From the IMG/VR virus record IMGVR_UViG_3300048769_000079, positions 1 through 55,549 of that record: a stretch of 55,549 bases of DNA. One strand, given 5' to 3'. Both the position numbers and the translations under genes were made by a program. Below the pieces are notes generated by a model that searched no databases, had not been told where the DNA came from, and saw nothing but the letters and a program-made list of their open reading frames with translations. Shown here one piece after another: positions 15,912 through 44,632 of this stretch. The stretch is from a virus. Taxonomy: Duplodnaviria > Caudoviricetes. The first letter of the stretch is position 1, and the number at the start of each line of letters is the position of its first letter.

Positions 15912-17447
15912 ATGGCGACGAAATTTGTAAAAGGTAAAGCAGTCAAAGCCGCGCCGTTAACGCGGGCGGTTAAGAAGGCGAAGCCGGTTTTAACCGACTA
16001 CGCAGTCAAGGTTGACAAGGAAATCGTAACGGTAGATATCAATAAGGTCAAGCTCTGGAAAGACAATCCGCGCCGTAACGACGCAGCCGCGCCTAAACTT
16101 GCCGAGGTTATCAAGGAGCGCGGGCAGGTCACGCCAGTAGTCGTGTGGCGTAAAGACGGCGTGTGCTATAAAGGCAATACCACGATCAAGGCCCTGAAGC
16201 TTTTGGGTGAAAAAACAGTGGATGTTCTTTTCGCGGATTTTAAAAGCGAAGCCTCGGCGATTGCTTACGGTATCGCGGATAATAAATCATCTGAATTTTC
16301 GGAATGGGACGACACCTTGCTTTTGTCGTTTTTAAAAATGGACGACGTAAAGACGACGGGATTTACTTCTTCGGAAATCGGTTTTTTTGATACCGTCGAA
16401 ATGACCGTCGAAAAAATACCTGCAATTGAAACGGTAATCGCGGTGTTTAAACTTTTCGGAAAAACGTCTTTGGATATTTTAAACTTTGTTAAAGTTCAAA
16501 ACGGCATACTTCACGCAACGAATCTTGATTTTCATGTTACGATTCCGGTTGACGCGCCGGATGGTATTTACGATTTGCGACTGTTCGAGCACGTTCGGAA
16601 GTGGGAATTCTGCAAGCGGGATGTACCCGTATCCGACTATTATCCTAACGTACCTACCGTCGGGTTTATTAAATCTGAAATCGATCTTTCCGGCTTAGAA
16701 AAGTTTATCCCCTTTACGTCAATTGATATACGCCGGGCAATCCTACATAATGTTTGTTTTTCAGACGGTATTGTTTTTGGTACCGATGGACACGTCGGAC
16801 TTTCCGAACCACGAAAAGCGCCGTCCGATTTTTCCATCTCCAGCGAAACAGCGAAAATACTTTCTTTATTTGATTTAGGTACTGCGTATCTAAACGCCGA
16901 ATGGATTAAAGCCGACGCACCGGACGGCGTAACGGTTTATATTAAAATCTGTAAAGATCAAGCACCGGATTATAAAAAAGCGATTAACAAAATTGATGTA
17001 TTCTATCCAGTTAACCGTATTGCGCTTTTAGAACAGGTCAAGAAATTAATTCCATTTGCAAAGACACAAATCGAATTTATTTCAGACCGAATACAAAATG
17101 GCGTTGTCGCTTCGGCGTTTGAAAATCCAATCACCTTTTCAGGGGATATTGATAATTTCGTAAAAGTTCTTTCCGCTTTCCCCAGCGAAACCGTTGAAAT
17201 CGGTATTAGTTTAAGCGGTACTCAAGTCCAAATAAAGAATGAAAACTTAACCGCGATTTTCATGGTTTTACGAAAAGCCGCGGACGTTAAATTTGACGCG
17301 CCGATAGTCTTTCCAATCGGAAAGCCGGAAGAACCTGAAATAATGGAAAGTTTTTCCGCTCGCGGATTCGGGTATACGATCAATGGAAAATGTTTACGAA
17401 CGATAAAGGCCGACTTTTTAAATAAGGTAGGTTTTAAAAATGCTTAA
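15912..17447 (+). CDS. ParB-N domain fused to beta-clamp-like domain
   Basis: NPRRN...ERGQVTPVVV...GNT...IADNK; C-terminal ATNLDF and RAILHNV...GTDGH resemble DnaN. Confidence 0.65.
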   Translation: MATKFVKGKAVKAAPLTRAVKKAKPVLTDYAVKVDKEIVTVDINKVKLWKDNPRRNDAAAPKLAEVIKERGQVTPVVVWRKDGVCYKGNTTIKALKLLGEKTVDVLFADFKSEASAIAYGIADNKSSEFSEWDDTLLLSFLKMDDVKTTGFTSSEIGFFDTVEMTVEKIPAIETVIAVFKLFGKTSLDILNFVKVQNGILHATNLDFHVTIPVDAPDGIYDLRLFEHVRKWEFCKRDVPVSDYYPNVPTVGFIKSEIDLSGLEKFIPFTSIDIRRAILHNVCFSDGIVFGTDGHVGLSEPRKAPSDFSISSETAKILSLFDLGTAYLNAEWIKADAPDGVTVYIKICKDQAPDYKKAINKIDVFYPVNRIALLEQVKKLIPFAKTQIEFISDRIQNGVVASAFENPITFSGDIDNFVKVLSAFPSETVEIGISLSGTQVQIKNENLTAIFMVLRKAADVKFDAPIVFPIGKPEEPEIMESFSARGFGYTINGKCLRTIKADFLNKVGFKNA

Positions 17448-19629
17448 AGATTATGATGCATTTCTTGAAAGCAAAATTGTTTTAAACACGGAGTGCGGTT
17501 TTGAACCGCATTCCGTTAGTAAATACCTTTTCCCTTTTCAAAAGCACATTCTTTTACGTGCTTTAAAAGTCGGAAGGTTTGCCGTTTTTGCTGATTGCGG
17601 GTTGGGTAAAACAATCATTCAACTTGAATGGGCACGTCTCGTTTCTGAAAAAGAAAAACGCCCTGTTTTAATTCTTGCACCTTTGGCGGTTGCTGGGCAA
17701 ACCATAGCTGAAGGTGAAAAGTTTAAAATACCTGTTAGTCGTTTAGACGGTTTGCAAAATATAATTATTTCAAACTATGAACAGATTGACAATATAGATA
17801 TTAAAAAATATTGTGGTATTGTTCTCGATGAATCATCGATTTTGAAAAATTATACCGGTGTGTATCGGCAAAAACTTACAGATTATTTTAAAGATACAAA
17901 ATATAAGCTTTGTTGTACGGCAACACCGTCACCAAACGATCCTGGTGAAATAGGGCAACATTCGGAATTTTTAAATATTTTAAATTCAACCGACATGCGT
18001 TCAAAATGGTTTGTACGTGATGAGGGTATGAATAACTATCGGTTAAAAGGTCATGCCGTAGAATCATTTTATCAATGGGTATCGTCATGGGCGGTTATGA
18101 TAAGTAAACCGTCCGATATTGGTTTTAAAGATGACGGTTTTATTTTACCGAAATTGTCAATTAAAGAAATTAAAGTTCCAAGTACTGGAAAAGAAGGTCT
18201 TATTTTCAACGATGCAATGATTTCAGCTACGGAATTTCAACAGGAGATTCGTAATACAATGGTCAATCGTTTGAATAAAGCCATTGAACTCGTTAACGCT
18301 TCAAAAAGTCAAGTCATTGTATGGATTAAACAAAACGTAGAAGCTGATTATTTAAAAGCACGTCTTTCCGACTTTGCTGAAGTTCGAGGCGATGAAAGCA
18401 TTGAATCGAAGGAAGAAAAATTACTCGGTTTTGCAAAGGGAAAATATAGAATTCTAATTACAAAAACTAAAATTGCGCAATTTGGTTTAAATTTTCAAAA
18501 TTGCCCACTTCAGATTTTTGCGGCATTTGATTTTTCTTTTGAATCGTTCTATCAGGCGGTTCGCCGGTCATGGCGATTTGGTCAAAAAAGTGAAGTTAAC
18601 GTAATGATGATAACGACGGATTCGATGAATAATGTTTTACAAACAGTAAAAAGAAAACAGGAGTCGTTTTTAACTATGCAAGCAAAAATGAACAAAATAA
18701 CGAATGAATTTCGGTATGGCTTGAAGAATGAGTACGTTCGTCGAGAAGTGAAGACGAACAGTTCTCTTTTAATAAATGGGGATTGTGTGAAGGAAATTAA
18801 AATTGTAGAAAATGATTCGGTTGACCTGATAATTTACTCACCTCCGTTTTCTTCGCTCTTTACATACAGTAATTACATACATGACATGGGGAATAACGAT
18901 TCTCACGAACGGTTTTTTGAGCAATACGCTTTCTTACTCAAAGAGCTGTATCGGGTATTAAAGCCAGGACGTTTAATTTGTACACATACGAAAGACCTTG
19001 CCGTATATAAAAATAGTAGCGGATACTCAGGTCTTTATAATTTCACCGGCAAGCATCACGCTGCGATGGAAAAAGCAGGTTTTAAATATCATTCAAAAAT
19101 TTGCATTTGGACTGATCCGGTTTTAGAAATGCAACGAACAAAAACACAAAGACTTCTTTACAAACAAGTAACGAGCGATTCATCGTATTCGGGTATAGGC
19201 ATGCCTGAATATGTTACTATTTTTCGTAAATGGGAAGGTAACGAGGAAGATTGGAAACCCATCGTAAATATTGATAAAAAGAAATTTTCTCTTGATACTT
19301 GGCAAAAATGGGCGTCTCCTGTTTGGATGGATATACGACGTACTGATGTTTTAAATAATTCGCGAACTGGTAGAAGTGCAAACGATGAAAAACACATTGC
19401 ACCTTTACAACTCGAAGTTATACGCCGTTTGGTACATCTATTCAGCAATACCGGTGAAACGGTATTAACGCCATTCCTTGGAATTGGTTCTGAAATTTAC
19501 ATTGCGGTAAAAGAAAAACGTAAAGGAATTGGTATTGAATTAAAGCCGGAATATTTTGACGTATCTGTAAAGAATGTAAATGTCGCAGAGCAGACGCAAA
19601 GGCAACTTAGTTTCATTGATGATTTATAA
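17440..19629 (+). CDS. SNF2-like helicase fused to N4/N6 DNA methyltransferase
   Basis: DCGLGKT, LDESS, TATP; then SPPF, HIAPLQ, TPFLGIGS, GIELK. Confidence 0.9.
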   Translation: MLKDYDAFLESKIVLNTECGFEPHSVSKYLFPFQKHILLRALKVGRFAVFADCGLGKTIIQLEWARLVSEKEKRPVLILAPLAVAGQTIAEGEKFKIPVSRLDGLQNIIISNYEQIDNIDIKKYCGIVLDESSILKNYTGVYRQKLTDYFKDTKYKLCCTATPSPNDPGEIGQHSEFLNILNSTDMRSKWFVRDEGMNNYRLKGHAVESFYQWVSSWAVMISKPSDIGFKDDGFILPKLSIKEIKVPSTGKEGLIFNDAMISATEFQQEIRNTMVNRLNKAIELVNASKSQVIVWIKQNVEADYLKARLSDFAEVRGDESIESKEEKLLGFAKGKYRILITKTKIAQFGLNFQNCPLQIFAAFDFSFESFYQAVRRSWRFGQKSEVNVMMITTDSMNNVLQTVKRKQESFLTMQAKMNKITNEFRYGLKNEYVRREVKTNSSLLINGDCVKEIKIVENDSVDLIIYSPPFSSLFTYSNYIHDMGNNDSHERFFEQYAFLLKELYRVLKPGRLICTHTKDLAVYKNSSGYSGLYNFTGKHHAAMEKAGFKYHSKICIWTDPVLEMQRTKTQRLLYKQVTSDSSYSGIGMPEYVTIFRKWEGNEEDWKPIVNIDKKKFSLDTWQKWASPVWMDIRRTDVLNNSRTGRSANDEKHIAPLQLEVIRRLVHLFSNTGETVLTPFLGIGSEIYIAVKEKRKGIGIELKPEYFDVSVKNVNVAEQTQRQLSFIDDL

Positions 19630-19658
19630 AAATATTTTTAAAATATAATAAATATTTG

Positions 19659-19687
19659 TTGATTTTATTATAATTAATTATTATATT
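19659..19687 (+). promoter_or_regulatory. sigma70-like promoter
   Basis: TTGATT-N17-TATATT, same format as the 4169 promoter. Confidence 0.6.
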
Positions 19688-19729
19688 TAATTAGTATAAA
19701 TTATTGTAAAATTTTTATAGGAGCATATC

Positions 19730-20116
19730 GTGTCATCACAAATTAGCTCAATGACTTTTGGGCTTCGGGAATCCGATCGAAAGTACATCGACCGCGTAGG
19801 CGTAGGATCTAACCCTTCGGAAAAATTACGATCCCTTTTCGACCGCTGGGCGGAGAAAACCGACGCGATTGCAGGTGAACCTTACGCAATTTTAATCTAT
19901 GAACAAAACGCTGATGGAGAAAAAACCTGGCATGACGCTGAGACTTTCGGAAAAAACTGGCGCAAGATTCCGGAAATAGCAACACGTAAAGGGTTTACAA
20001 GTCAGATTGTTGAAGACCAGGAAACCGGGACCGTCGAAGTCTGGGTTGCACCGGTAAAGAATAAAAAAGACTGTGCGGCGTGTCGGTCAAGGGTAATGGA
20101 GGTGCTGAATGGGTAA
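19730..20116 (+). CDS. Hypothetical protein, N-terminal RHH-like
   Basis: RBS AGGAG + GTG; MTFGLRE...NPSEKLR. Confidence 0.6.
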   Translation: MSSQISSMTFGLRESDRKYIDRVGVGSNPSEKLRSLFDRWAEKTDAIAGEPYAILIYEQNADGEKTWHDAETFGKNWRKIPEIATRKGFTSQIVEDQETGTVEVWVAPVKNKKDCAACRSRVMEVLNG

Positions 20117-20285
20117 AACCGTTTATGATAATCTTGCCGAACTTTTGGATGGTATTGACGTAGAATGCCAAGGCTGTTACGAAAACAAAGGGCACCACAG
20201 CGCCGAGGGGTTACACTGCCCAGTTGTAGATGAGGGTTTTAAATTAAATAAGACGCGGCAATTTACTGTGGAAGTATTTAAATAA
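20109..20285 (+). CDS. 58-aa CxxC-H-CP zinc-finger protein (not in ORF track)
   Basis: RBS GGAGG; MGKTVYDNLAELLDGIDVECQGCYENKGHHSAEGLHCPV...; stop overlaps the next ATG. Confidence 0.6.
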   Translation: MGKTVYDNLAELLDGIDVECQGCYENKGHHSAEGLHCPVVDEGFKLNKTRQFTVEVFK

Positions 20286-20824
20286 TGGAGCTAACAATTA
20301 AAAAGGTAAAAAGCATAGGTCCGTGCGCGGATGGGTTTGCGTGGTACATGAAAAATCCAGGTAGGACAGTAGAAAAAACCATAAAAACGCTTTTAGCAAG
20401 TGATGAATGTGAGAAATATAATTGGTCAAACTGGCTTTTAACTCACTTGTTTACAAAAGAGAAAAATATAAAATATGCTATTTTTGCCGCGAAAGAGGTT
20501 TTGTATCTTTTTGAGGCAAAATATCCTGATGATTCTCGTCCGAAGAAGGCAATCGAAGCTGCTGAAAAATATTTAATTACGGAGGGTGCGGATGCGGCGT
20601 GGGCTGCGGCGTGGGCTGCGGGAGCTGCGGCGGGGGATGCGGCGTGGGCTGCGTCGGGGGATGCGGCGAGGGCTACGGGGGCTGCGGCGTCGGGGGATGC
20701 GGCGTGGGCTGCGGGGGATGCGGCGTGGGCTGCGGGGGCTGCGGCGTCGGGGGATGCGGCGTGGGCTGCGGCGTCGGCTGGACTCTCTATTAAAATTATA
20801 AAGTATGGAATAACTTTGCTATGA
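20285..20824 (+). CDS. Ala/Trp-repeat (AAWAA) phage protein
   Basis: PDDSRPKKAIEAA followed by low-complexity GDAAWAA repeats (about 20587-20778). Confidence 0.75.
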   Translation: MELTIKKVKSIGPCADGFAWYMKNPGRTVEKTIKTLLASDECEKYNWSNWLLTHLFTKEKNIKYAIFAAKEVLYLFEAKYPDDSRPKKAIEAAEKYLITEGADAAWAAAWAAGAAAGDAAWAASGDAARATGAAASGDAAWAAGDAAWAAGAAASGDAAWAAASAGLSIKIIKYGITLL

Positions 20825-21537
20825 CAATATTCCATCGTTCTATCCTCGCGGGTGCAGCGCTTATTGGTAACACGGAGGACGATCCACAGATGCGTGTCGT
20901 TCTTTTAGAACCCTCCGGGGAAATCGTTGCTATAAATCGCTGGGCGGTTTATGTAGCATCCCCTCCGGCGCCGGAAATCGTCTCTAAACTACCGCTTAAA
21001 GATGATAGACTACCGTCTGCCGTTACTATCAGCAACGCTCAAATATCCGAACTCGTTAAAGCCATCCCCCCGGACCGGCAATTTAAAACGCTTTTAGAAC
21101 ATGTTACTATTACTCAAGGTAACGGCAACCTTTTAGATGCGGCGTTTAACAACGGTAAAGGCGTGCAAAGCGTTCGAATGCGTAGTACGCAGGGTAGCGC
21201 TGCATTATTAAATTGGCGTGACCGTTTAAAGGCTGTCGGGCCTTTAATCTCTTCCAGCGCTCCGAGTTTTGTTTACAACAGGCTACGGTTAAAAACCGTA
21301 AACCAAGCGCTGGAGGTAAGCTGTAAATACTCCGGGGAATTTGACGCGGTAACGCAGGCAATTTTTAAGAGCGGTTATATTTGGCGAGCGCAAAACGGGC
21401 AAACCGGGCAACGTATTGTCATTGCGTGGATAGCACAGATGGCGCAAACGCCGTTTGACTCTTGGGAAATTAACCTATTTACTAAACGGGGTGGTCCGTT
21501 GGAAAGGCCGTTATATGTCACAAAAACGAAAAACTAA
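20821..21537 (+). CDS. Hypothetical protein, possibly degenerate sliding-clamp fold
   Basis: Coupled ORF; VLLE..G.IVAINRW resembles the clamp VATDG motif. Confidence 0.45.
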   Translation: MTIFHRSILAGAALIGNTEDDPQMRVVLLEPSGEIVAINRWAVYVASPPAPEIVSKLPLKDDRLPSAVTISNAQISELVKAIPPDRQFKTLLEHVTITQGNGNLLDAAFNNGKGVQSVRMRSTQGSAALLNWRDRLKAVGPLISSSAPSFVYNRLRLKTVNQALEVSCKYSGEFDAVTQAIFKSGYIWRAQNGQTGQRIVIAWIAQMAQTPFDSWEINLFTKRGGPLERPLYVTKTKN

Positions 21538-21724
21538 TCGAAAACAAAGTCAAGTTTTCTCCCATCCATATGGCGGCGCGGATAAAGTCAAAACAACACC
21601 CTTTACGTCGTGCGTAAGCGGTGGGAAGGTATTTCGGTTAAGCGAGGAGACCGGCGTTTCGTCGATACGAGGTGCGGTACGCGGTAATGGTAAGGGTTTT
21701 AACTTTTATTAAAAGGAGACATCT

Positions 21725-21928
21725 ATGTCATGTTCAAAGGTTTGCAAAGGGTGTCGGGATCGTGATTGTGCGAGCGTAAAGACCATATATCTTTATCCGT
21801 TAAGTGAACTCGTAAGTTGTGTACGGGTTTCGGAAGAGGCTTCCTCGGATATTATTCGAGCAATTGATAGAAGTACAAGGCTTAAACCCGCTCGGTTTCA
21901 AATTAATGGGAAATGGGGGCGGGCATAA
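21725..21928 (+). CDS. Small Cys-containing hypothetical protein
   Basis: RBS AGGAG; CSKVCKGC..C. Confidence 0.55.
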   Translation: MSCSKVCKGCRDRDCASVKTIYLYPLSELVSCVRVSEEASSDIIRAIDRSTRLKPARFQINGKWGRA

Positions 21929-22407
21929 TGGAAAAGTGTCTTCATTGTGGATTGATAAAGTTGGAACATAGGGAAAGCGATGGTGCTTGTCCAGTATACG
22001 AGGCACCACAATATTCAACTGGTAATTTATTTCATACACAAAACGGTTTTCATAATGTAAATAAGTTTGTTGCTAATACTTCCCCCACCCCTATCCTTAA
22101 AATTGAAAAGTGTTTTCATTGCGGAACGGTTAAGGGGGAACATCGGGCGAGCGATAATGCTTGTCCAATAGTCGGCGACAGCGGCGTTTATAAAAAAAAT
22201 AGATTTCAGGATGTAAATAAGTTTTTTGCTATTCCCTCTTCCGTTGAAGGCTTTACTACCCCAATGCCCCGACGGACGTGGTTATGGCATCGGATAAATG
22301 AATTACTTACGGCAATAACACAATACGTTGAAACGGATAATTGTAAATCGTCAATAGATCATTGGATTGATGAGCTGAAGAAAAATATAGAAGAATGGAA
22401 TGTATAA
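21928..22407 (+). CDS. Protein with duplicated CxxC-H-CP zinc-finger module
   Basis: EKCLHCG..K.EHR.SD.ACP occurs twice, each followed by F..VNKF. Confidence 0.7.
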   Translation: MEKCLHCGLIKLEHRESDGACPVYEAPQYSTGNLFHTQNGFHNVNKFVANTSPTPILKIEKCFHCGTVKGEHRASDNACPIVGDSGVYKKNRFQDVNKFFAIPSSVEGFTTPMPRRTWLWHRINELLTAITQYVETDNCKSSIDHWIDELKKNIEEWNV

Positions 22408-22519
22408 TGGCGGGCACCGGCACAACCGAGAGGCATCTCACCTGTGCACGATGGCCGCAAGTACATGCTGTGGGTAATATATTGGCTTTGCAAGCCGAAA
22501 ACCAAGAAAGAAGGAAAAA

Positions 22520-22900
22520 ATGCATCTATTATACTCTGGCGAATGTCGACAGTGTGTGTGCGGTATCAAAACGAACATGAAGGACCTGCGCGGCAAAGAA
22601 TTGTTTACTGGCGACATAGTTCTTACTTTCACTAAGGGCTATTCGGCAGACGGATTGACAGCAGTGGTTTCAGACCAGTTTACAAGCTGTTCTGACGGAA
22701 CACACGTTGAGCATGAATCGCATTCGCCGTTCGTTATGGGTATAAAAAACGTTAATCTTGATGAGGGCGAATGGATGATTATGAAAGTAAAAGATTGGTC
22801 GGATTGTATTGATGGTGAACATTGGAAAGATTTCGGATTCAAATACAAAAACGAAGACGCGCCGCAGAACACTAAGGAAGCGGTGGAGAACATCGCCTAA
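22520..22900 (+). CDS. Cassette A gene, YopX-like motif
   Basis: DLRGKELFTGDIV; stop codon lies inside the attC R'' box. Confidence 0.65.
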   Translation: MHLLYSGECRQCVCGIKTNMKDLRGKELFTGDIVLTFTKGYSADGLTAVVSDQFTSCSDGTHVEHESHSPFVMGIKNVNLDEGEWMIMKVKDWSDCIDGEHWKDFGFKYKNEDAPQNTKEAVENIA

Positions 22901-22967
22901 CAAATGCATGGCGGGGAGTACCCCCAAATGCGGAGTACCGCACTTCGCCATGCATCGGACGTTGGTT
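22895..22967 (+). mobile_element. attC-like recombination site
   Basis: GCCTAAC...ATGCATGGCG/CGCCATGCAT stem...GTTGGTT; 73 bp. Confidence 0.7.
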
Positions 22968-23042
22968 GCAATTAATCGCGCTCTGAAAATTATAGCCGGG
23001 GCGCAAAGACAACGCGGCATCGTGCCGCGAAGAAAAGAAAAA

Positions 23043-23978
23043 ATGAAATTTATCTCACTGTTTGCCGGTATCGGGGGTTTTGATTTAGGGCTTGAACGCG
23101 CCGGAATGCAGTGTGTCGGCCAGGTCGAGATAAATCCTTTTTGCCAGCGCGTTCTTGCGCACCACTGGCCGCAAGTCAAACGAATTGGAGATATACGAAA
23201 TGTCAACGGAACAGAGTTCGGAGCAGTTGACCTTATTTGTGGAGGGGTTCCATGCCAGCCTGCCAGCAACGCCGGGAAGAGAATGGGAACACAAGATGAT
23301 CGTTGGCTCTGGCCAGAGGCTTTTCGAGTTGTACGGTCTATCAAGCCGCGTTGGTGCGTGTTTGAAAATGTGCGTGGAATTATTACTCTCGAACAAGGTT
23401 TGGTTTTCGAGTCGTTGCTTTCTGAATTGGAAGATATTGGTTACGAAGTCGAAGCGTTCGTTATTCCAGCTTGCGCCGTCGACGCGCAGCACCGAAGGGA
23501 TCGGGTCTGGATTGTGGCAAACTCCAAGCGTGGAGGATGCGGGGCGCAAGGGGAGCGCAGAAGCCTGGATGGAATATCAGAACAACCACAGAACTACGCA
23601 ATGCCGATTAAGGAATCAAATTCAAATGTTCCCGACTCCAACCGTTCAGGATTCGGAGAAGGACGGTGGCCCGAGTCAATACAAAAGGAACAGTATCCCG
23701 CTGAACGCATTAGTAAAGGATCAAGGGCAAACTGGGAGCCTGAACCCGGATTGGGTAGAGTGGCTAATGGGGTTCCCGGTCGGGTGGACAGGTTGTGGAG
23801 TCTCGGAAACGCAGTCGTCCCGCAAGTCGTTGAAGTTATAGGAAGAGCAATCCTAAGAGCGCACATCGTGTGCGCGGAATGCGCCCCGGAGAACACTTCG
23901 GAAGCGCGATTAACAGCAACTAACAGCCGCGTTACGCAAGGGGCTAAAGCCCACATTGCCGAAGCGGCAACGTCGTAA
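23043..23978 (+). CDS. C5 cytosine methyltransferase, alpha polypeptide (cassette B)
   Basis: SLFAGIGG, GDI, GGVPCQ, ENV, HRRDRVW, LGNAV; motif IX absent. Confidence 0.9.
   Translation: MKFISLFAGIGGFDLGLERAGMQCVGQVEINPFCQRVLAHHWPQVKRIGDIRNVNGTEFGAVDLICGGVPCQPASNAGKRMGTQDDRWLWPEAFRVVRSIKPRWCVFENVRGIITLEQGLVFESLLSELEDIGYEVEAFVIPACAVDAQHRRDRVWIVANSKRGGCGAQGERRSLDGISEQPQNYAMPIKESNSNVPDSNRSGFGEGRWPESIQKEQYPAERISKGSRANWEPEPGLGRVANGVPGRVDRLWSLGNAVVPQVVEVIGRAILRAHIVCAECAPENTSEARLTATNSRVTQGAKAHIAEAATS
23200..23841 (+). CDS. C5 methyltransferase beta polypeptide nested in the +1 frame
   Basis: RBS GGAG at 23187; WQTP/FPTP repeats and LNPDWVEWLMGFP (motif IX), as in M.EcoHK31I-type enzymes. Confidence 0.8.
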   Translation: MSTEQSSEQLTLFVEGFHASLPATPGREWEHKMIVGSGQRLFELYGLSSRVGACLKMCVELLLSNKVWFSSRCFLNWKILVTKSKRSLFQLAPSTRSTEGIGSGLWQTPSVEDAGRKGSAEAWMEYQNNHRTTQCRLRNQIQMFPTPTVQDSEKDGGPSQYKRNSIPLNALVKDQGQTGSLNPDWVEWLMGFPVGWTGCGVSETQSSRKSLKL

Positions 23979-23995
23979 CACGGCGAACGTTAGTG
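23918..23995 (+). mobile_element. attC-like recombination site
   Basis: AACTAAC...GCCGCGTTACG/CGTAACACGGC...GTTAGTG; 78 bp. Confidence 0.7.
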
Positions 23996-24032
23996 TAAAT
24001 GCCTTGCGCTTTTAAAATTGAAAGGCTGCGCG

Positions 24033-24233
24033 ATGAAAAAAGGAAAATATAGCGGGCAAGTAAACAATGGTTGTCGCATTGTAGAAATTGATTGCTGTGC
24101 TGATTGTTGCTCATGTACTGAAGTGGCTGAGCTTAACGGGGAATATTATTGTCAAAAGCTTTTAGAGTCAATACCAAAAATGTTTGTGTCCTATGACTTT
24201 CTGGATGATTGCCCGCTCCCAAACGCGCACTAA
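24033..24233 (+). CDS. Cassette C gene, small Cys-rich protein
   Basis: CCADC...YC...CPL; stop codon lies inside the next R'' box. Confidence 0.6.
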   Translation: MKKGKYSGQVNNGCRIVEIDCCADCCSCTEVAELNGEYYCQKLLESIPKMFVSYDFLDDCPLPNAH

Positions 24234-24347
24234 CAGCGCTATGGTGCCATGCCATTCGTGGGAGTGTGCTGGTTATAACTGTTGGATTATTAAAGGTCGC
24301 TATTGTAAAGATAAGCCGTGTCTCGTTATGGCACGTACACGTTGTAC
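24228..24347 (+). mobile_element. Degenerate attC-like site
   Basis: CACTAAC...GTGCCAT/ATGGCAC...GTTGTAC; right arm partly missing. Confidence 0.5.
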
Positions 24348-24487
24348 GCAATAAATTTTTCTCTGGAGGTTATAGGTGGCCGCAATTAAGAGTGTTTCTA
24401 CAACAGATTCAATAGCAAACATTAAACCTTGTGTGTCCGGTTTTGTAAAACAACGATAATATTGTACTTCACCAAAGGAAGATTAAA

Positions 24488-24646
24488 ATGGTAAAAGTTT
24501 TTATAACTATTCTGATTACTATAATGGTATTGACCCTTATGGTTGGTGCCTGGCAAGTTGAACGGCGCTGGAACTATACCATATCCTATCGGCAAATGGT
24601 TGAAGAAACCGTCCGAGACATGGTGAAACAGGAGTCGTTAAAATGA
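24488..24646 (+). CDS. 52-aa single-TM protein (not in ORF track)
   Basis: MVKVFITILITIMVLTLMVGAWQVERRWNY...; RBS AGGA. Confidence 0.6.
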   Translation: MVKVFITILITIMVLTLMVGAWQVERRWNYTISYRQMVEETVRDMVKQESLK

Positions 24647-24804
24647 TGAAAAATCCTTTACTTTTAGTAATATTTTTACTACTTTATGTATGCTGCTATT
24701 GGCTACTTCCGTGGTCCTTCGGAGGGTTGAGGGCAGTTTTTTGGACCCACGGCGTCATGGTTGCGGGCGTCATCGTTGCCGCTTTCTTCGTTAAAATTAC
24801 TTAA
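24643..24804 (+). CDS. 53-aa two-TM protein (not in ORF track)
   Basis: RBS AGGAG, ATGA overlap, two hydrophobic segments. Confidence 0.55.
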   Translation: MMKNPLLLVIFLLLYVCCYWLLPWSFGGLRAVFWTHGVMVAGVIVAAFFVKIT

Positions 24805-24879
24805 TTTTTATTTAATATTTTGAAAAGAACCCGAAAAACCCGATTTTTACGGTTTTCGTTAAAAATGAAAACCCTTTAA

Positions 24880-25090
24880 AATCAATGACTTAACCTATAC
24901 GAAAAACGATAAAAAAATTAAGTCCTTGATTTTAAATGAGTTACGGTACTATATATATACTAATTCTATATTTATAATTATATTTATTTAATTATTATTA
25001 TATGACTTTAAGTTATATAGGGGCGTAAGTCATTGATTTATAAGGACTTTTTTTAAAAGGGCCGTTTTTATAGGGGCTAACTTATTGATT
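24880..25090. promoter_or_regulatory. Four IHF-consensus sites in AT-rich region upstream of terminase (candidate cos/pac or origin)
   Basis: WATCAANNNNTTR at 24880 (+), 24919, 25026 and 25078 (-). Confidence 0.6.
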
Positions 25091-25264
25091 TATAACAAGT
25101 TAGCTCTTTTATTTACAAATAAGAAAAATTTTAGCGTATTTTGTAAAGGATGCTTTACCTAACGGTAAAAGCGCTTTTTGTAAAGCGATTATAAAAATAT
25201 TTTTATAAAATTCTTATAAAATTTTTTTATAGTCTCTTTTTGCTTTTTATAATATATTTAAGGC

Positions 25265-25480
25265 ATGAAACAAACGGCGAAAAAACGCGGTACCACTTTG
25301 ACAGTCAATGATTTGATAGCCGACGACACAAATGCCAACGACGGAACGCTTCGCGGTCAAGATCTCGTTTGTAAATCATTGCAGCGCTTCGGTACTGGCC
25401 GATCAATCCTCGTTGATAAAAACAATCGAATAATAGCCGGAAATAAAACCACGGTACACAAGCAGGAAAGGAGCAAATGA
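25265..25480 (+). pseudogene. Truncated ParB-N-like gene
   Basis: SLQRFGTGRSILVDKNNRIIAGNKT, then ends abruptly. Confidence 0.55.
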
Positions 25481-25509
25481 AATGATTTACGAAAAAAGCG
25501 GAGGCGGAG

Positions 25510-26055
25510 GTGGCGGTGGAAGTTCAAAAGGTGGTAAAGGTGGAAGTTCAAAAGGTGGAAAAGGCGGCGCTCGTGGCGGACGTAGATAATAAGCCGTACA
25601 AGATAGGGAAAGGTAAACCGCCATTAGAGTATACATGGCGCAAAGGTCAACCGCATCCGCGCGGCGGACACAAAAAGGGACAAAAGAATATTGTCCAACG
25701 TGTCCGCCGTACTATTGCCAAACAGCTCGAAGAAAATGGAAATTTTGAAGCGCCGGAAGTGATTAAAAAACTAATTGGAGAGTTTTTTAAAGACGTTGAC
25801 ATAAATAAATTATCTTCCGACGATGCAACATGGATACGCGTTCGAATTGCAGCGTTAAATGGCGAACAGTGGGCGGCTTCTTTTATTGCAGACCGCTTAG
25901 AAGGTATGGCCCGACAACGAGTTGAACTTTCATTTACCGACTTAAAAGAAGCAGCAGACGAGGTTGGAAAAATAATAGTTGAATTTGTTCCGGCAAATAA
26001 AGTTGACGAATGCTTGTTAAAACTAAACGCGGTATTGGCAAAGGCAAATGGATGA
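25510..26055 (+). CDS. terS: Terminase small subunit (DUF5681-like)
   Basis: YKIGKGKPP...KGQ motif, DRLEG, upstream of TerL. Confidence 0.7.
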   Translation: MAVEVQKVVKVEVQKVEKAALVADVDNKPYKIGKGKPPLEYTWRKGQPHPRGGHKKGQKNIVQRVRRTIAKQLEENGNFEAPEVIKKLIGEFFKDVDINKLSSDDATWIRVRIAALNGEQWAASFIADRLEGMARQRVELSFTDLKEAADEVGKIIVEFVPANKVDECLLKLNAVLAKANG

Positions 26056-27523
26056 AAAACTTACACGAGCGAACTTCGGTTCAACGTTATTTGATCTTAT
26101 TGTCAGTACGGTTAAGCCTTCCGCGTCCATATCTGAAGCATACACAAAAAAATATTATAACGACCCGCTTGCGTGGGTTTTAGATTTTGTAAACGTAGAC
26201 TTGTCATTATACCACCGAGAGGCTTTTGAGATGATCCGAGACGGTAATCACAAAATAGCAATGCACGGGCCGCATGGACTTGGAAAAACAGTCTTTGCGG
26301 CCATTGCTATTTTATGGGCGGGCGCGGTCTCGGCGGATTGCAAAATCATTACCACTGCGTCGGCCTGGCGACAATTAGAAAACTACCTTTGGCCGGAAAT
26401 CCACAAATGGTACTCCAAAGTAAACTGGACTGCCGTCGAGATGGCTGGTGGTTGTAAAGTTCCTCGTTTACTTACGCTCGAATGCAACTTCAGCGAACAG
26501 TCGAAGGCATTTGCCGTCGCGTCGGATCGACCGGAGAGTATCGAAGGCGGTCACGCGGTGCGCGTCGTTTACGTCTTCGACGAAGCGAAGGCTATACCGA
26601 ACGCAATTTGGGAAAGTGCCGAAGGGGCCTTTAGTACGCCTGGAGATCATTTACAGATCGCGCTTTCTACCCCCGGCGACACGTCGGGCGTCTTTTATAA
26701 TATTTGCGCGCACCGTAACGGTTATGAGAAGTGGAAAGTCAAACATGTTACTTTACGTGAGGCAATTCGCGCGGGTCGCGTTACCCTAACCTGGGCGCGG
26801 GAAAAGCGCGCCGCTTGGGGAAAGGATTCCGCCGCATACCAGAATCGCGTATGGGGAATTTTTGCCACGGACGCACCCGACGTAGTTATCCCCCTCGCCT
26901 GGGTAGAGCGTGCCGTATCACGGTGGTACGATTGGAAAGATAAAGGCGCAGTACTCGCCGGACCCTATGTTATCGGAGCGGATACCGCCGGACAGGGTGT
27001 TGACAAGACGGTTTTTGCCCACCGTTATGGGAATGTACTTACGCGCTTAGAGCGTTTTGGAAAATCACGGCCTATGGAACTTGCCGGAAAGCTTAAAGCG
27101 GCTCTTGGAATGGTAGGGGAAGTTAACATTGACACGTCATTCGGTGAAGGCGTAGGCACGGCAGACCGCCTTAAAGAAGACGACGCGTTAAAGGCCCGCG
27201 TCCACGAAATACAGTTCGGGACGCGAACGGACATTACCGATCGGACGGGGCAAATTGTTTTCAAAAACACCCGCGCTTTACTTATTTGGAGCATGCGCGA
27301 AATGCTTGACCCTGACAACAAAGAAGACATCGCTTTACCGGATGACGAAAACCTAATAGGTGACTTGACCGCCATTCACCGCTTACCTCTCTCCAGTGAC
27401 GGGAAGCTGGCAATCGAAAGCAAGGACGATATCAAGGCGCGTATAGGCCGTTCGCCGGACGACGGGGATGCGTGTTGTTTGGCGTTTTTTAGGGCACCCA
27501 TTCACGATTTACAGATTTTTTAA
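26048..27523 (+). CDS. terL: Terminase large subunit
   Basis: HGLGKT, VFDEA, STPG, GADTA, RSPDDGDA. Confidence 0.95.
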   Translation: MDEKLTRANFGSTLFDLIVSTVKPSASISEAYTKKYYNDPLAWVLDFVNVDLSLYHREAFEMIRDGNHKIAMHGPHGLGKTVFAAIAILWAGAVSADCKIITTASAWRQLENYLWPEIHKWYSKVNWTAVEMAGGCKVPRLLTLECNFSEQSKAFAVASDRPESIEGGHAVRVVYVFDEAKAIPNAIWESAEGAFSTPGDHLQIALSTPGDTSGVFYNICAHRNGYEKWKVKHVTLREAIRAGRVTLTWAREKRAAWGKDSAAYQNRVWGIFATDAPDVVIPLAWVERAVSRWYDWKDKGAVLAGPYVIGADTAGQGVDKTVFAHRYGNVLTRLERFGKSRPMELAGKLKAALGMVGEVNIDTSFGEGVGTADRLKEDDALKARVHEIQFGTRTDITDRTGQIVFKNTRALLIWSMREMLDPDNKEDIALPDDENLIGDLTAIHRLPLSSDGKLAIESKDDIKARIGRSPDDGDACCLAFFRAPIHDLQIF

Positions 27524-27734: not shown

Positions 27735-29901
27735 TAAAGAAATTACCCTTTACGGACCGCAAGGACAGGCGCTTGACCTACAGACCAAGGCGCTTGACGT
27801 TCCTGACCTTGACCCTACGTTTTTTTATCAGTCCAATAATTACGGCAATTTATCAAGCAAAGAAATTGAAAAGAAACCGTATCAACTACATTGGGCGGTT
27901 TATGCATGCGCTAAAGCAATAGCAATAAACCTCCGACGATTACCTCATCATATTTACGGCGACGATAATAAAATTATACCGAAGTGTCCTATTTGGTCAT
28001 TACTCAAAAAGCCGAACCCTTTCATGACGTGGAATATCTTTTGGGAATCTACCATTCTTTACTCAATGCTACCGTGCCGTGAGGGCTTTGGGCGTTCGCT
28101 AAAGGGTGGGCAGGTCTTTTGGGTCATGGATTCCGGCAAGGCCGATCCGAAGGTTGACCTTGCGCGGGGTGACATTCCGGCAACGATCTACCCCTATACG
28201 GATGAATTTATCGCGCCGGAGTTTGACAAGCAGAAACACTTCCTTGGCTGGAAATTAGAAATCCCCGGACCGGAACCTTTCATCGAGCACTATAAGCCGA
28301 ATGAGATTTTGCGCATTTACAACTTCAACCCCTACGATTGGCTGTCCGGTCAATCAAACTATGCCGCCGCACAGATGGCAATCATCAACGATATTAAAGC
28401 GGATATTTGGAATAACCGGATGTTTGAAAACGACGCTATCCCCGGAGGCGTTCTCTCCAGCGATCAGGAGTTGACGAAGGACCAAGCGAACGAAATGCAA
28501 AACCGTTGGTATCAGCAATATGGCGGTGTAGGAAATACGCGCCGCGTTGTTATACTTGGTAAAGGAACGGAGTTTCAAAAGATTGCACTTGATCATAAGG
28601 ACATGGAATTTCAAGAACAAAAAGACCGCGTTGTTGAACAGCTTCTTGCGGTTTTTGGTTTAAATAAAATTGCCCTTGGTAAATACGAAGATGTCAACTA
28701 CGCAACGCTTGTTGAGGGGCATAAAATGTTATGGGAGGATACGTACCTCCCTATTGAAGAAAATTTGCTTGAACAGGTTAACAGTAATTGGATAAATAAT
28801 ATTGACGTTCGAAATGAAATTCATTTAGGCGCGGATACCTCAGGCGTGCGCATTCTTAAAAAAGATTATACCGTTGCAACCAATTCCGCTACTAAGCTTT
28901 ACGCGATGGGCGTACCGGCGGAGACCGCGCTGCGAATAACTGAAGTTCCCCTAACCGACGACGACTATAAGAACGCGCCCTGGCTGAAAGAGCGCCCGAC
29001 GCCGCTTATAGGCGGCACGCCGAACGCCAGGGGTAGTCTTACGCCCTCGGCACCCGGCCAAGAGCCTAACGAGCCTAAAGGAACCGCTAAGGCCCTTATC
29101 GTTAAGGCGGTCGGCTTCGGCCTGGACGTTCTCGATAGGATTTCCGCCGATTACGTTGAACGGGTTTTAGCACCAGGGGAAAATACCCTTTACACAAAGC
29201 TTGTTCGGCTAATGACCAACCTCCGTAACGAATCCCAAGACAAGGTTGACGAATGGCTAAAGAGAGTTACAAAATCGAAGCAGCCGCCGTCTTTGAATGG
29301 TAACGAATTTTTGTTTGACGAGGACGAGGCAAATCAAGCATTATTGAAAATTTACAAAGCACAGGTTGAAGCACAGATATACCTCGAAGCGTCAAAGCTT
29401 AAAGAAGAGTTAGGCGCGTTTGTAAATTGGGGAGTTAGCGATCCACTTATCCAAAGCTTTGTAAAGAACCGCCGCGCGGCGCTTGATTCAATCAACACCA
29501 CGACTATTGAGACCTTTAAGGATAAGATTTCCGAAGCCGTCACCGAAGGGTATAATAAGGTTTGGACTCCTCAACAATTTGCAAAGTCGATCAAGGAAGC
29601 CCTCGGCGACGCGGGCGAGATTCGTAAGAATCAAGCCAGGACAATCGCGCGAACGGAGACGGGGATAATTTCGGCGGACGCTCGGTATGATTGTTTTGTC
29701 AAGGAGGAGATTGAAGAAAATCAATGGACAACGTCAAACGATGATAAAGTACGAGACACGCACGCCGAAGAGAACGGCAACGTTGTTCCCGTAGGAGAAC
29801 CGTTTCCGGTTACGGGCCTGATTCATCCCAGCGACCCGGATGGTCCGGCGGAAGAGGTTATAAATTGCCGCTGCGTTGCGGTTGCCGTTAGACCTGATTA
29901 A
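27724..29901 (+). CDS. Portal protein fused to MuF/SPP1 gp7-like head morphogenesis domain
   Basis: VYAC...LLKKPNPFM, FENDAIPGG; C-terminal ARTIARTE, DDKVR..H, EVINCRC. Confidence 0.9.
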   Translation: MNFNKEITLYGPQGQALDLQTKALDVPDLDPTFFYQSNNYGNLSSKEIEKKPYQLHWAVYACAKAIAINLRRLPHHIYGDDNKIIPKCPIWSLLKKPNPFMTWNIFWESTILYSMLPCREGFGRSLKGGQVFWVMDSGKADPKVDLARGDIPATIYPYTDEFIAPEFDKQKHFLGWKLEIPGPEPFIEHYKPNEILRIYNFNPYDWLSGQSNYAAAQMAIINDIKADIWNNRMFENDAIPGGVLSSDQELTKDQANEMQNRWYQQYGGVGNTRRVVILGKGTEFQKIALDHKDMEFQEQKDRVVEQLLAVFGLNKIALGKYEDVNYATLVEGHKMLWEDTYLPIEENLLEQVNSNWINNIDVRNEIHLGADTSGVRILKKDYTVATNSATKLYAMGVPAETALRITEVPLTDDDYKNAPWLKERPTPLIGGTPNARGSLTPSAPGQEPNEPKGTAKALIVKAVGFGLDVLDRISADYVERVLAPGENTLYTKLVRLMTNLRNESQDKVDEWLKRVTKSKQPPSLNGNEFLFDEDEANQALLKIYKAQVEAQIYLEASKLKEELGAFVNWGVSDPLIQSFVKNRRAALDSINTTTIETFKDKISEAVTEGYNKVWTPQQFAKSIKEALGDAGEIRKNQARTIARTETGIISADARYDCFVKEEIEENQWTTSNDDKVRDTHAEENGNVVPVGEPFPVTGLIHPSDPDGPAEEVINCRCVAVAVRPD

Positions 29902-43624: not shown

Positions 43625-44632
43625 GTGTTTACAATGAGCAATAGCATGTTAGAAATCAAGCGTACGATGGGGTGCCGAATTGAGAGCACTCCTTATACGC
43701 AAGAAAGCCCTCTCAACGGAGGAGATTACAACGTTGCGGTGTATGGTATTAATTATGACCCGGATATTGCAATGTACGCCCGGAAACTTGCGCGCGGCGA
43801 CGCGTCAAAGGATTTACAAATTCCAGGTACACGGAAAATAAAGATTACGTTTTCTGTTGATATGTGCGTCGGCATCAACGCATACACGCCTCCAAACTAT
43901 TGGAAGCTTTTACGCGCTTGCGGATTGAAGCAGGTCATTTATAATACGACCGGATGCGCGCTTATCCCCGATTCACGATATTTTAACGTTCCCGTGACGA
44001 TTGAGGTCGTAGAAATGGCCGAAGGTATTTCTCCTTTACAAATTGTCATTGCGGCACGCGGCTGCATGGGAACGGTAAAAAAGACAAGCAGCGGTGTTGG
44101 ACTTCCTGCAAAACTTGAATTCGACTTTACCGGTGTACTCGTTGGGATTTCCGAACGGACTTTTGCAAACCAAATCATGCCCACGGGTTGGGATGCGGCG
44201 CTCCCCCAGGCCGTGCTTGCATGTACGACGTCTCTCTACGGCGTATCTCAGATGTTTGATAAAATAACGCTTGACGTGGGGAATAACCTCGAAGTTTTTA
44301 AAGATCCAACACGCGCCGAAGGTTTTGAAGGTACGCGTATCGTGGATCGAACTCCGATGCTCGAAATTGACCCCGCTCTACAGCCCGTAAGCGTTCAAGA
44401 TATGTATAATAACCTTTTAGCCAACGGGCAATCTCCCGGCGCGTATTCGGAAACTATTGGTAGCGGCGGATCGTCGGGAATTTCCTTAACGATTACCGCG
44501 CCAAAAGCCCAGGTCATTGCATCGAATAAACCGGGAAATCGTGAGGGTCGCGTCACGAACAACGTGAAATGTTTACTTACGCGTAACTTAGGAAACGACG
44601 AATTTATGATTTTACAGGGCACAATAAGCTAA
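43625..44632 (+). CDS. Major tail tube protein
   Basis: IESTPY, LLRACG, LEFDFTG; position. Confidence 0.75.
   Translation: MFTMSNSMLEIKRTMGCRIESTPYTQESPLNGGDYNVAVYGINYDPDIAMYARKLARGDASKDLQIPGTRKIKITFSVDMCVGINAYTPPNYWKLLRACGLKQVIYNTTGCALIPDSRYFNVPVTIEVVEMAEGISPLQIVIAARGCMGTVKKTSSGVGLPAKLEFDFTGVLVGISERTFANQIMPTGWDAALPQAVLACTTSLYGVSQMFDKITLDVGNNLEVFKDPTRAEGFEGTRIVDRTPMLEIDPALQPVSVQDMYNNLLANGQSPGAYSETIGSGGSSGISLTITAPKAQVIASNKPGNREGRVTNNVKCLLTRNLGNDEFMILQGTIS

Follow-up and report, generated by a model that had tools for sequence, protein, structure and literature searches.

A Methyltransferase Gene as a Probable Mobile Cassette of an Integron-Like, Non-Canonical System in Uncultivated Phages

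A Probable Methyltransferase Cassette with Complementary Ends

The window analyzed here, from a peat phage, is the entire viral record IMGVR_UViG_3300048769_000079 (Duplodnaviria; Caudoviricetes; 55,549 bp, 99% complete by estimate, G+C 44%), and positions are those of this record unless a locus is named. The segment 22962-23989, which carries a C5 cytosine DNA methyltransferase gene, is probably a mobile cassette of an integron-like, non-canonical system that is common in uncultivated phages. Found together in this system are AAC/GTT cores, hairpin stems that co-vary, complementary cassette ends (criterion 14-26 nt) and, beside some arrays, a Xer-like recombinase. A first-pass annotation, made from the letters alone, had seen three pairs of complementary boxes, each joining the GTT box of one site to the left box of the next. 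It had read them as the footprint of cassette insertion by an integron integrase, which crosses over between G and TT. Both the observation and its interpretation are upheld in part. All six motifs are present at the positions it gave. The first pair, GTTGGTTGC (22961) with GCAACTAAC (23916), is real: it has eight Watson-Crick pairs plus one G.T, lies far beyond chance, and forms the core of the window's longest inverted repeat (22956-23005 with 23880-23929, 50 nt, 72% complementary). The idea that units are joined at G|TT, each keeping at its 5′ end what is left of its right-hand box, holds for the methyltransferase cassette and its family; the integron integrase as agent is unsupported.

We propose that a cassette extends from the TT after the G of one GTT box to the G of the next, and that it holds in turn a leader bearing a ribosome-binding site of its own, the gene and a hairpin site. 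In a free circle, the first ~21 nt of the cassette would pair with the ~21 nt preceding its AAC box and form an outer clamp stem. With the inner hairpin, this clamp would complete the recombination site, which would fold on the strand antisense to the genes (minus). Insertion of the circle by recombination beside the GTT/AAC core would place the clamp arm at the far 5′ end of the cassette, and an arm left there would produce the cross-complementarity noticed in the first-pass annotation. The agent may be a short Xer-like tyrosine recombinase acting in trans. We infer the circular intermediate, the single-stranded folding and the identity of the enzyme from the patterns described below.

Relatives of the methyltransferase in viral contigs (L013, L014) and in metagenome contigs (47 loci) have the same bracket, with boxes that differ and still pair. 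The co-varying end boxes are GTTGTATGC/GCATACAAC in L014 and GTTGTAAGC/GCTTACAAC in L013; four further box pairs are found among the relatives, including GTTGGCTG/CAGCCAAC, GTTAGAGGA/TCCTCTAAC and GTTATATGC/GCATATAAC. The left arm of the repeat is conserved in L013 and L014 and in 16 or more metagenome loci, where it co-varies with the right arm. Across 42 distinct cassettes the boxes at the two ends match at a mean of 4.40 of 6 variable positions (8 perfect, 15 with five), and the two boxes of a single site match at a mean of 3.09 (n = 76). None of 20,000 permutations reached the observed end-pairing mean or the observed count of perfect pairs. The pairing spans positions 3-8 and 11-20 after the G, where 34-48 of 53 cassettes are paired at each position, and it includes a conserved mismatch at positions 9-10. 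In a shifted control, 11-26 cassettes were paired at non-conserved positions. In most cassettes the right clamp arm falls within the last codons of the cassette's own gene.

The first-pass annotation had suggested reconstructing circles in silico and comparing their folding with that of shuffled pairings, and the outcome favors its idea. Of 51 cassettes, 44 fold better on the minus strand as a circle junction than in the array form, five fold worse and two equally well (mean −26.9 vs. −22.2 kcal/mol). Random partners gave a mean of −21.7 kcal/mol, from which the array form does not differ (p = 0.11). The values for the window cassette are −29.6 for the circle junction, −26.2 for the array form and −23.9 kcal/mol for random partners.

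Cassettes also behave as units. One cassette occurs in at least four contexts (L049, L050, L051, L053/54), with identity that runs from its left GTT to the next GTT past the hairpin. The short cassettes (150-220 nt) encode open reading frames (ORFs) of 26-56 amino acids (aa), each with its own ribosome-binding site. Among near-identical hairpins on different contigs for which both flanks were available, 19 pairs share both flanks and four share neither; 17 share the upstream flank alone and none the downstream flank alone. Thus, the hairpin belongs to the preceding gene and the junction is on the GTT side. We did not find the leader motif GCGCTCTGRAAATTATA in viral contigs other than that of L014; the matches in L027-L032 are chance occurrences in unrelated coding DNA.

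A Family of Folded Sites

On the gene strand, the consensus of 44 non-redundant sites reads ACAKC-NNN-CAAC-A followed by a 6-bp stem ending in A and a variable tip; the right half is T plus 5 bp, RRA-C and then GTTG-NNN-G-M-AAT, in which the AAC and GTT are fixed partly through the search pattern used. The inner stem co-varies. In 24 family members all six pairs have changed on both sides, and 88.8% of the cells are paired. Shuffles gave 67% paired, with 0 of 500 reaching the observed value, and sliding the partner gave 21-38%.

A covariance model was built from 24 sites. In related viral and metagenome loci (377 kb) it returned 100 matches with E-values up to 0.01, all on the gene strand, at densities of up to seven in 3 kb and eight in 4.8 kb, and the arrays are co-oriented. 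Two strict two-ended patterns found 38 and 42 stretches in the viral collection, where a rough estimate puts the random expectation at ~7 each. In the pattern-found viral loci (299 kb) the model gave 216 matches, and by eye each locus had its matches on a single strand. Among the carriers are 4 kb fragments at one extreme and complete genomes of 213 and 253 kb at the other, and nine sampled genomes span 29-54% G+C. The model had no match in 80 bacterial loci encoding related methyltransferases (864 kb) and one marginal match in five whole bacterial genomes. None of 151 Pseudomonadota genomes gave a match, a count that shows little with ~31 candidates scored per genome and no positive control.

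The minus strand is the better folder in 40 of the 44 sites. In the inner stems of 88 distinct sites, an A.C on the plus strand, which is a G.T on the minus strand, occurs 22 times and a plus-strand G.T once. The non-Watson-Crick positions of the clamp are likewise biased, with 56 A.C and 28 G.T on the plus strand. This wobble bias toward the minus strand argues against a role in plus-strand RNA.

Anti-restriction methyltransferases are the commonest identifiable cargo near the sites. The 91 ORFs of at least 170 aa that were scanned in the vicinity of sites include at least 17 N6/N4 methyltransferases, one C5 methyltransferase, one MT-A70 and two tyrosine recombinases. A weak site-model match (17 bits, E 0.02) in the cultured Polaribacter phage P12002L (L282, 32215-32289) adjoins methyltransferase genes. 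It differs from the two attC sites tested by Qi et al. (Qi 2023, PMC9892861).

Other features were seen in single loci. In L049, the tip of the hairpin site at 1183-1336 has a tRNA-like stretch (GCTCAGCGGTAGAGCA ... GGTTCGACTCC), for which ARAGORN makes no tRNA call. The first cassette of L194 (1551-1720, AAC box at ~1557 and GTT box at ~1717) appears to have its ORF mostly inside the hairpin loop. The starts of the arrays in L194 (1296-1346), L013 (2880-2910) and L014 (1745-1777) have a common motif, GTGTATATA ... CTTTG ... TA|GTTG. In L194 it begins at the stop codon of the recombinase described below and holds an inverted GTTATACG/CGTATAAC pair; L013 and L014 retain it without a recombinase. 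The motif may be a counterpart of attI.

The Array in the Window

The features of the array are as follows, from left to right.

22520..22900, plus strand: gene A, 126 aa with a Cys-rich N-terminus; stop codon within the left box of site 1, GCCTAAC
22890..22972, plus strand: site 1, folded hairpin site; AAC box at 22899-22901, three-way-junction hairpin, GGA bulge, GTT box at 22961-22963
22961..23005, plus strand: left arm of the cassette-end inverted repeat; core clamp 22961-22981, with an extension to CCGGGGCGCA
22962..23989, plus strand: putative methyltransferase cassette (TT...G), made up of the left clamp arm, a leader, the methyltransferase gene, the right clamp arm and a hairpin site of its own, site 2
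23013..23029, plus strand: small hairpin of the cassette leader, 7 bp with a TCG loop; mirror-image partner at ~23850-23866; present in L014 too
23043..23978, plus strand: C5 cytosine DNA methyltransferase, 311 aa (PF00145, E 3.8e-50; phrog_363 over residues 1-273)
23880..23924, plus strand: right arm of the cassette-end inverted repeat; its last bases are the AAC box GCAACTAAC (23916-23924)
23913..24000, plus strand: site 2, folded hairpin site with the architecture of site 1, from fold and site model
23990..24341, plus strand: decayed cassette C; 66-aa Cys-rich ORF (24033-24233), then a degenerate site; end pairing of only 7 nt
24222..24352, plus strand: degenerate site 3; AAC and GTT halves recognizable, inner stem reduced to 7 bp (GTGCCAT/ATGGCAC); possible 37-aa ORF at 24241-24354
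24341..24374, plus strand: left end of a further unit, including its leader and ribosome-binding site; consensus fit GTTGTACGCAAT
24399..24404, plus strand: TACAAC, proposed earlier as a fourth box and rejected; in no folded site

Sites 1 and 2 (22893-22969 and 23916-23996) have the same three-way-junction fold, with compensatory changes in six of 19 predicted pairs. On the minus strand, site 1 folds at −20.8 kcal/mol (z −3.63) and site 2 at −24.9 kcal/mol (z −5.22). Site 2 is the most stable 90-nt fold of the window and site 1 is in the top five. The conserved domain of the methyltransferase ends near residue 273, and its last 38 codons are the right repeat arm and the start of the site 2 hairpin. 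A scan of 340 TAAC...GTTR candidates in the window found no further element comparable to these two sites. Likewise, a scan of the window with the covariance model, all filters off, returned sites 1 and 2 only, with site 3 among the noise (7.6 bits, E 9.6).

Gene A is the edge of the array, because it has no matching left end upstream. The first-pass annotation had already set this cassette apart since it saw no upstream GTTAGGC. The motif is indeed absent there, and the four copies in the window are at 29409 and beyond. A relative of gene A in L001 (47%) has no hairpin after the gene.

The two remaining pairs fared less well. The second, GTTAGTGT (23989) with GCACTAAC (24227), is weak (seven pairs plus a wobble) and does not extend; the boundary that it implied at 24341 is real. 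The GTT half of site 3, ACGTTGTACGCAAT, matches the family consensus. We regard the boundary as real and site 3 as decayed, because contigs in two other runs switch at 24340 while 24227-24347 fails to fold. The third pair, GTTGTA (24341) with TACAAC (24399), does not exceed chance: the window has 14 and 9 copies of these hexamers, and the unit would span only 58 nt. We found neither a fold (z +1.19 and +0.91) nor a site-model match downstream of 24399. The supposed third and fourth sites are thus not supported as folded sites: shuffled sequences fold as well as 24227-24347 and 24397-24480 do (z −0.10 to +1.19), and neither stretch has a significant model match.

Breakpoints in Population Contigs

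Assembled contigs of four other runs from peat and lake water (X4-X7) were compared with the window over 20500-26500. They depart from its sequence mainly around the predicted cores. The departures are at 22899 (X4, X5) and 22959-22961 (X4, X6, X7) at site 1, at 23916 (X7), 23922, 23984 and 23989 (X6) at site 2, and at 24340 and 24374 (X5, X6). The remaining loose ends are at 23006, at 24801, and at 23260 and 23732 inside the methyltransferase gene. The letters past the breaks resemble other family members, such as "...CCGTTGGCCGAAC" before 24341. Because the sequence past that break looks like a family member, 24341 is a real cassette boundary though site 3 no longer folds. In X5 and X6, the unit start at 24341-24374 is joined to another upstream hairpin and another downstream gene.

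Within the methyltransferase gene, both ends match in lake-water contigs and the middle diverges (23260, 23732). The relatives of the methyltransferase have a near-identical 5′ leader and 3′ tail despite 50-60% protein identity. From these sequences, the target-recognition middle seems to be exchanged between the conserved ends.

Several observations weigh against a mobile cassette of this kind. We saw no circle junction or cassette-less contig among the assembled contigs of X4-X7, which cannot show rare forms. None of the joints in them skips a cassette; the sole joint is an 87-nt skip at 25451-25539 in X5, within a repetitive coding stretch rich in Gly, Ser and Lys, where it is a length polymorphism. 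De Bruijn contigs, moreover, can change path within shared repeats. Breaks occur on the AAC side of the hairpins too (22899, 23922), and the same hairpin is found behind different methyltransferase alleles; that of site 2 is identical in L035, behind a different allele. Thus, either exchange is not confined to the GTT side or hairpins are common to several cassettes. The end boxes do not match at three loci (L039, L041, L048). The site-model scores of site 1 (65.6 bits, E 1.3e-17) and site 2 (57.3 bits) are not independent, because both sites were training members of the model. The distribution of recombinases also counts against the proposal. PF00589 is present in five of 60 site-bearing viral records and in two of the 19 that are at least 90% complete, and one of these two has an ordinary prophage integrase at a provirus end. 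BLASTP clustering of nine site-bearing genomes found no protein family in more than four. Since few carriers encode a recombinase and there is no common family, the enzyme is no more than a candidate, and any action of it would have to be in trans.

Candidate Recombinase

We did not find a tyrosine or serine recombinase in the window phage. None of the 54 window ORFs scanned with Pfam matches PF00589, and the integron-integrase model TIGR02249 gave no candidate in the window. Genomes G001 and G002 also have no PF00589 match. The window array, with one intact cassette and two decayed neighbors, is therefore an orphan, as its phage encodes no recombinase.

The most suggestive enzymes adjoin arrays in two relatives. 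In L194, a 298-aa Xer-like recombinase is encoded ~700 nt upstream of a five-site array. Its best models are XerA, XerC and XerD. Against the integron-integrase model it scores 114 bits (cut-off 265), in two pieces that skip model positions 180-254. G168 encodes a 263-aa homolog (38% identity), divergent from two sites, the first of which is ~250 nt from the start codon. The remaining recombinases are the integrase at a provirus end (G010), an enzyme of 534 aa located at the end of a contig (L189/G190) and a further one in G177. Because Xer-like enzymes adjoin the arrays of these two relatives, a Xer-like enzyme acting in trans is the best guess for the agent. The integron integrase named in the first-pass annotation is not supported, as the phage has none and the array-adjacent enzymes of relatives lack the integron-specific insert.

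Xer-dependent elements include CTX-type phages, which integrate through a folded single-stranded site, and the pdif modules of Acinetobacter plasmids, which are bounded by inverted sites. The present system resembles them in the Xer-family tyrosine recombinase and, in the case of CTX, in the folded site. It differs in that no dif-like 28-bp site was identified and in that an array is a series of many single-gene units, all co-oriented, with a hairpin for every unit.

Comparison with Integrons and Other Known Systems

The system has much in common with integrons. It has single-gene promoterless units, each with its own ribosome-binding site and a folded end site with AAC/GTT cores. The break is at G|TT. 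In arrays the right box is chimeric, and the 5′ end of a cassette pairs with the cassette's own left box. The antisense strand is the better folder, methyltransferases are cargo, and arrays occur without a recombinase. An ordinary attC array might therefore have been taken from a bacterial integron and be moved by a host IntI, as reported for some phages. The AAC/GTT cores, the gene-then-site polarity, the chimeric right box and the minus-strand bias all fit integron biology (Nivina 2016, PMC5027507). Moreover, clusters of attC sites lacking integron integrases (CALINs) have already been reported in phages with methyltransferase cargo (Qi 2023, PMC9892861). Thus, an integron-like array in a phage is not new in itself; what differs is the design of the site. 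A CALIN has two or more attC sites no farther than 4 kb apart and lacks an integron integrase; sites 1 and 2, 941 nt apart with no integrase in the window, would form one only if they count as attC.

We nonetheless consider an ordinary attC array unlikely, on account of the geometry. As defined in Nivina 2016 (PMC5027507), attC has two boxes, a 5-6-nt unpaired spacer in each arm and extrahelical bases on the arm opposite the bottom-strand AAC. We found that in the 15 Vibrio attC sites of phage record MK672802 each arm has an unpaired spacer of 5 nt, with an extra base on the gene-side arm. The attC sites of phages TJE1, PH101 and P12002L and the aadA7 control have canonical geometry as well (Qi 2023, PMC9892861). 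In the present sites, the spacer is a one-sided bulge of 3-4 nt, with a single nt (A) in the left arm and 4 nt (RRAC) in the right, and extrahelical bases are absent from the gene-side arm and present on the other. The cassette ends pair over ~21 nt, up to 50 nt in the methyltransferase cassette, as compared to 6-7 nt in attC, and much farther than the first-pass annotation had noticed. Both window sites have the AAC and GTT of the canonical boxes (RYYYAAC/GTTRRRY); the left box of site 1, GCCTAAC, fits, and the right boxes GTTGGTT and GTTAGTG fit in part. The sites are like canonical attC in that the bottom strand is the favored folder and gene-then-site cassettes are joined at G|TT with a right box from the next cassette; a two-sided 5-6 nt spacer and extrahelical bases on the usual arm are lacking. 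A complete integron has an IntI with its specific segment and an attI beside the array, and no such integrase was found in the window. The recombinases beside the two arrays of relatives are short, Xer-like and without the segment specific to IntI. The site model did not find the Vibrio attC sites (best 10.5 bits, E 0.88) or anything in TJE1, and the absence of sites from 864 kb of bacterial loci also argues against a bacterial integron as the source.

A second alternative, which we rate as somewhat less probable still, is that the sites are regulatory linkers like the promoter(early) stem-loops (PeSLs), and that modules are shuffled at short common sequences by the general homologous recombination of phages. 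Comeau and colleagues reportedly described PeSL cassettes of T4-type phages in 2014. The resemblance lies in small ORFan genes in hypervariable phage regions, with stem-loop motifs between them, in modular gain and loss among close relatives, and in a phage without an identified dedicated recombinase. Most site-bearing phages lack a site-specific recombinase, the window phage has a Sak4-like annealing protein, an exonuclease and a junction resolvase, and motifs of ~12 nt are conserved at both ends. Mini-circles of PeSLs are documented as well (Arbiol 2010, PMC2839356). Homologous exchange, however, predicts neither complementary, co-varying cassette ends nor the minus-strand wobble bias. The study by Arbiol et al. 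(PMC2839356) describes PeSLs as sigma-70 promoters with G/C-rich terminators and variable crossover points, so breakpoints confined to the cores are unexpected. The present sites have fixed breakpoints and no such signature: for sites 1 and 2 we found neither a sigma-70-like promoter nor a T-tract terminator on the plus strand. Here there is co-variation in stems and cassette ends alike, and the strand bias points to folded minus-strand DNA.

Pairing at the RNA level is a third alternative and an improbable one. The 5′ leader and the 3′ end of each cistron would form a stem, for example an RNase III site, and the hairpin would be a terminator or stabilizer. The coding strand does hold all of the sites, every ORF has the arms on either side of it, and the stem measures ~21 bp. 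Against this, the A.C excess on the sense strand, in inner stem and clamp alike, means that plus-strand RNA would pair worse than minus-strand DNA. No T-tract follows the hairpins, and whole cassettes are gained and lost at the cores. Chance box matches beside unrelated hairpins would account for the third pair and can be dismissed for the first, given the longest inverted repeat, the co-varying stems, the folding of circles and the family-level permutations. Elements of the IS200/IS605 type, miniature inverted-repeat transposable elements or mobile insertion cassettes, and invertible segments were considered and dropped, as there is one hairpin per unit, the breakpoints are at cores and there is no transposase or invertase.

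Implications

A mobile methyltransferase cassette is thus the reading that we prefer. The cargo probably protects phage DNA from host restriction, by analogy with the established role of orphan methyltransferases in phages. We give about even chances to a broader proposal, in which diverse phages (38-253 kb, 29-54% G+C) would have their own common system of gene capture, in parallel with integrons. Its cassettes, each with one gene, a ~21-bp clamp and an antisense hairpin, would change places at a fixed GTT/AAC core through the action of a short Xer-like recombinase absent from most carriers. This would be a main route for the exchange of anti-restriction methyltransferases and small ORFan genes among phages. 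If the mechanism holds, phages trade accessory genes one at a time, as precise cassettes, through structure-specific recombination. Integron-style chemistry would then be possible without the special domain of the integron integrase, which bears on the origin of attC sites and cassettes. The system appears to evade standard integron surveys, and the published attC sites of phages are of the canonical kind. We did not find a paper on hairpin sites of this design or on clamp-ended phage cassettes in a literature search that left out bioRxiv supplements.

Genomic Setting

Nearly all long ORFs of the window are on the plus strand, and no terminal repeats were found in it. In addition to the recombination proteins named above, the phage encodes a family A DNA polymerase, a primase, helicases, and terminase, portal, capsid and tail genes. 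The array is at the end of the early/replication block, immediately upstream of an AT-rich gap and the terminase genes. A search of the phage collection with 22400-24900 returned distant methyltransferase matches only. The relatives of the terminase (L002-L012) and of gene A (L001) have no sites. An Rfam scan of 19000-27000 gave one sub-threshold small RNA as its sole match.

The AT-rich gap (24805-25264) is gene-free, rich in inverted repeats and just upstream of the small terminase gene. The best sigma-70-like promoter match of the region is inside it, at 25226-25253, and the gap may be a packaging, origin or promoter region. In X5, the window sequence upstream of 24801 is replaced by other sequence.

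A strong three-way-junction fold (−23.8 kcal/mol) is present on the plus strand at 43984-44075, within the gene at 43625-44632. It starts with TTTTAACGTTCCCG, akin to the minus-strand start of site 2, and has no site-model match. The phage has a second methyltransferase that is not in a cassette, a 729-aa fusion of a SNF2-type helicase and an N6/N4 DNA methyltransferase (17440-19629). Small Cys-rich, zinc-ribbon-like ORFs flank the array at 21725-22407 and 24033-24354, and similar tiny Cys-rich proteins are frequent cassette cargo in the related loci.

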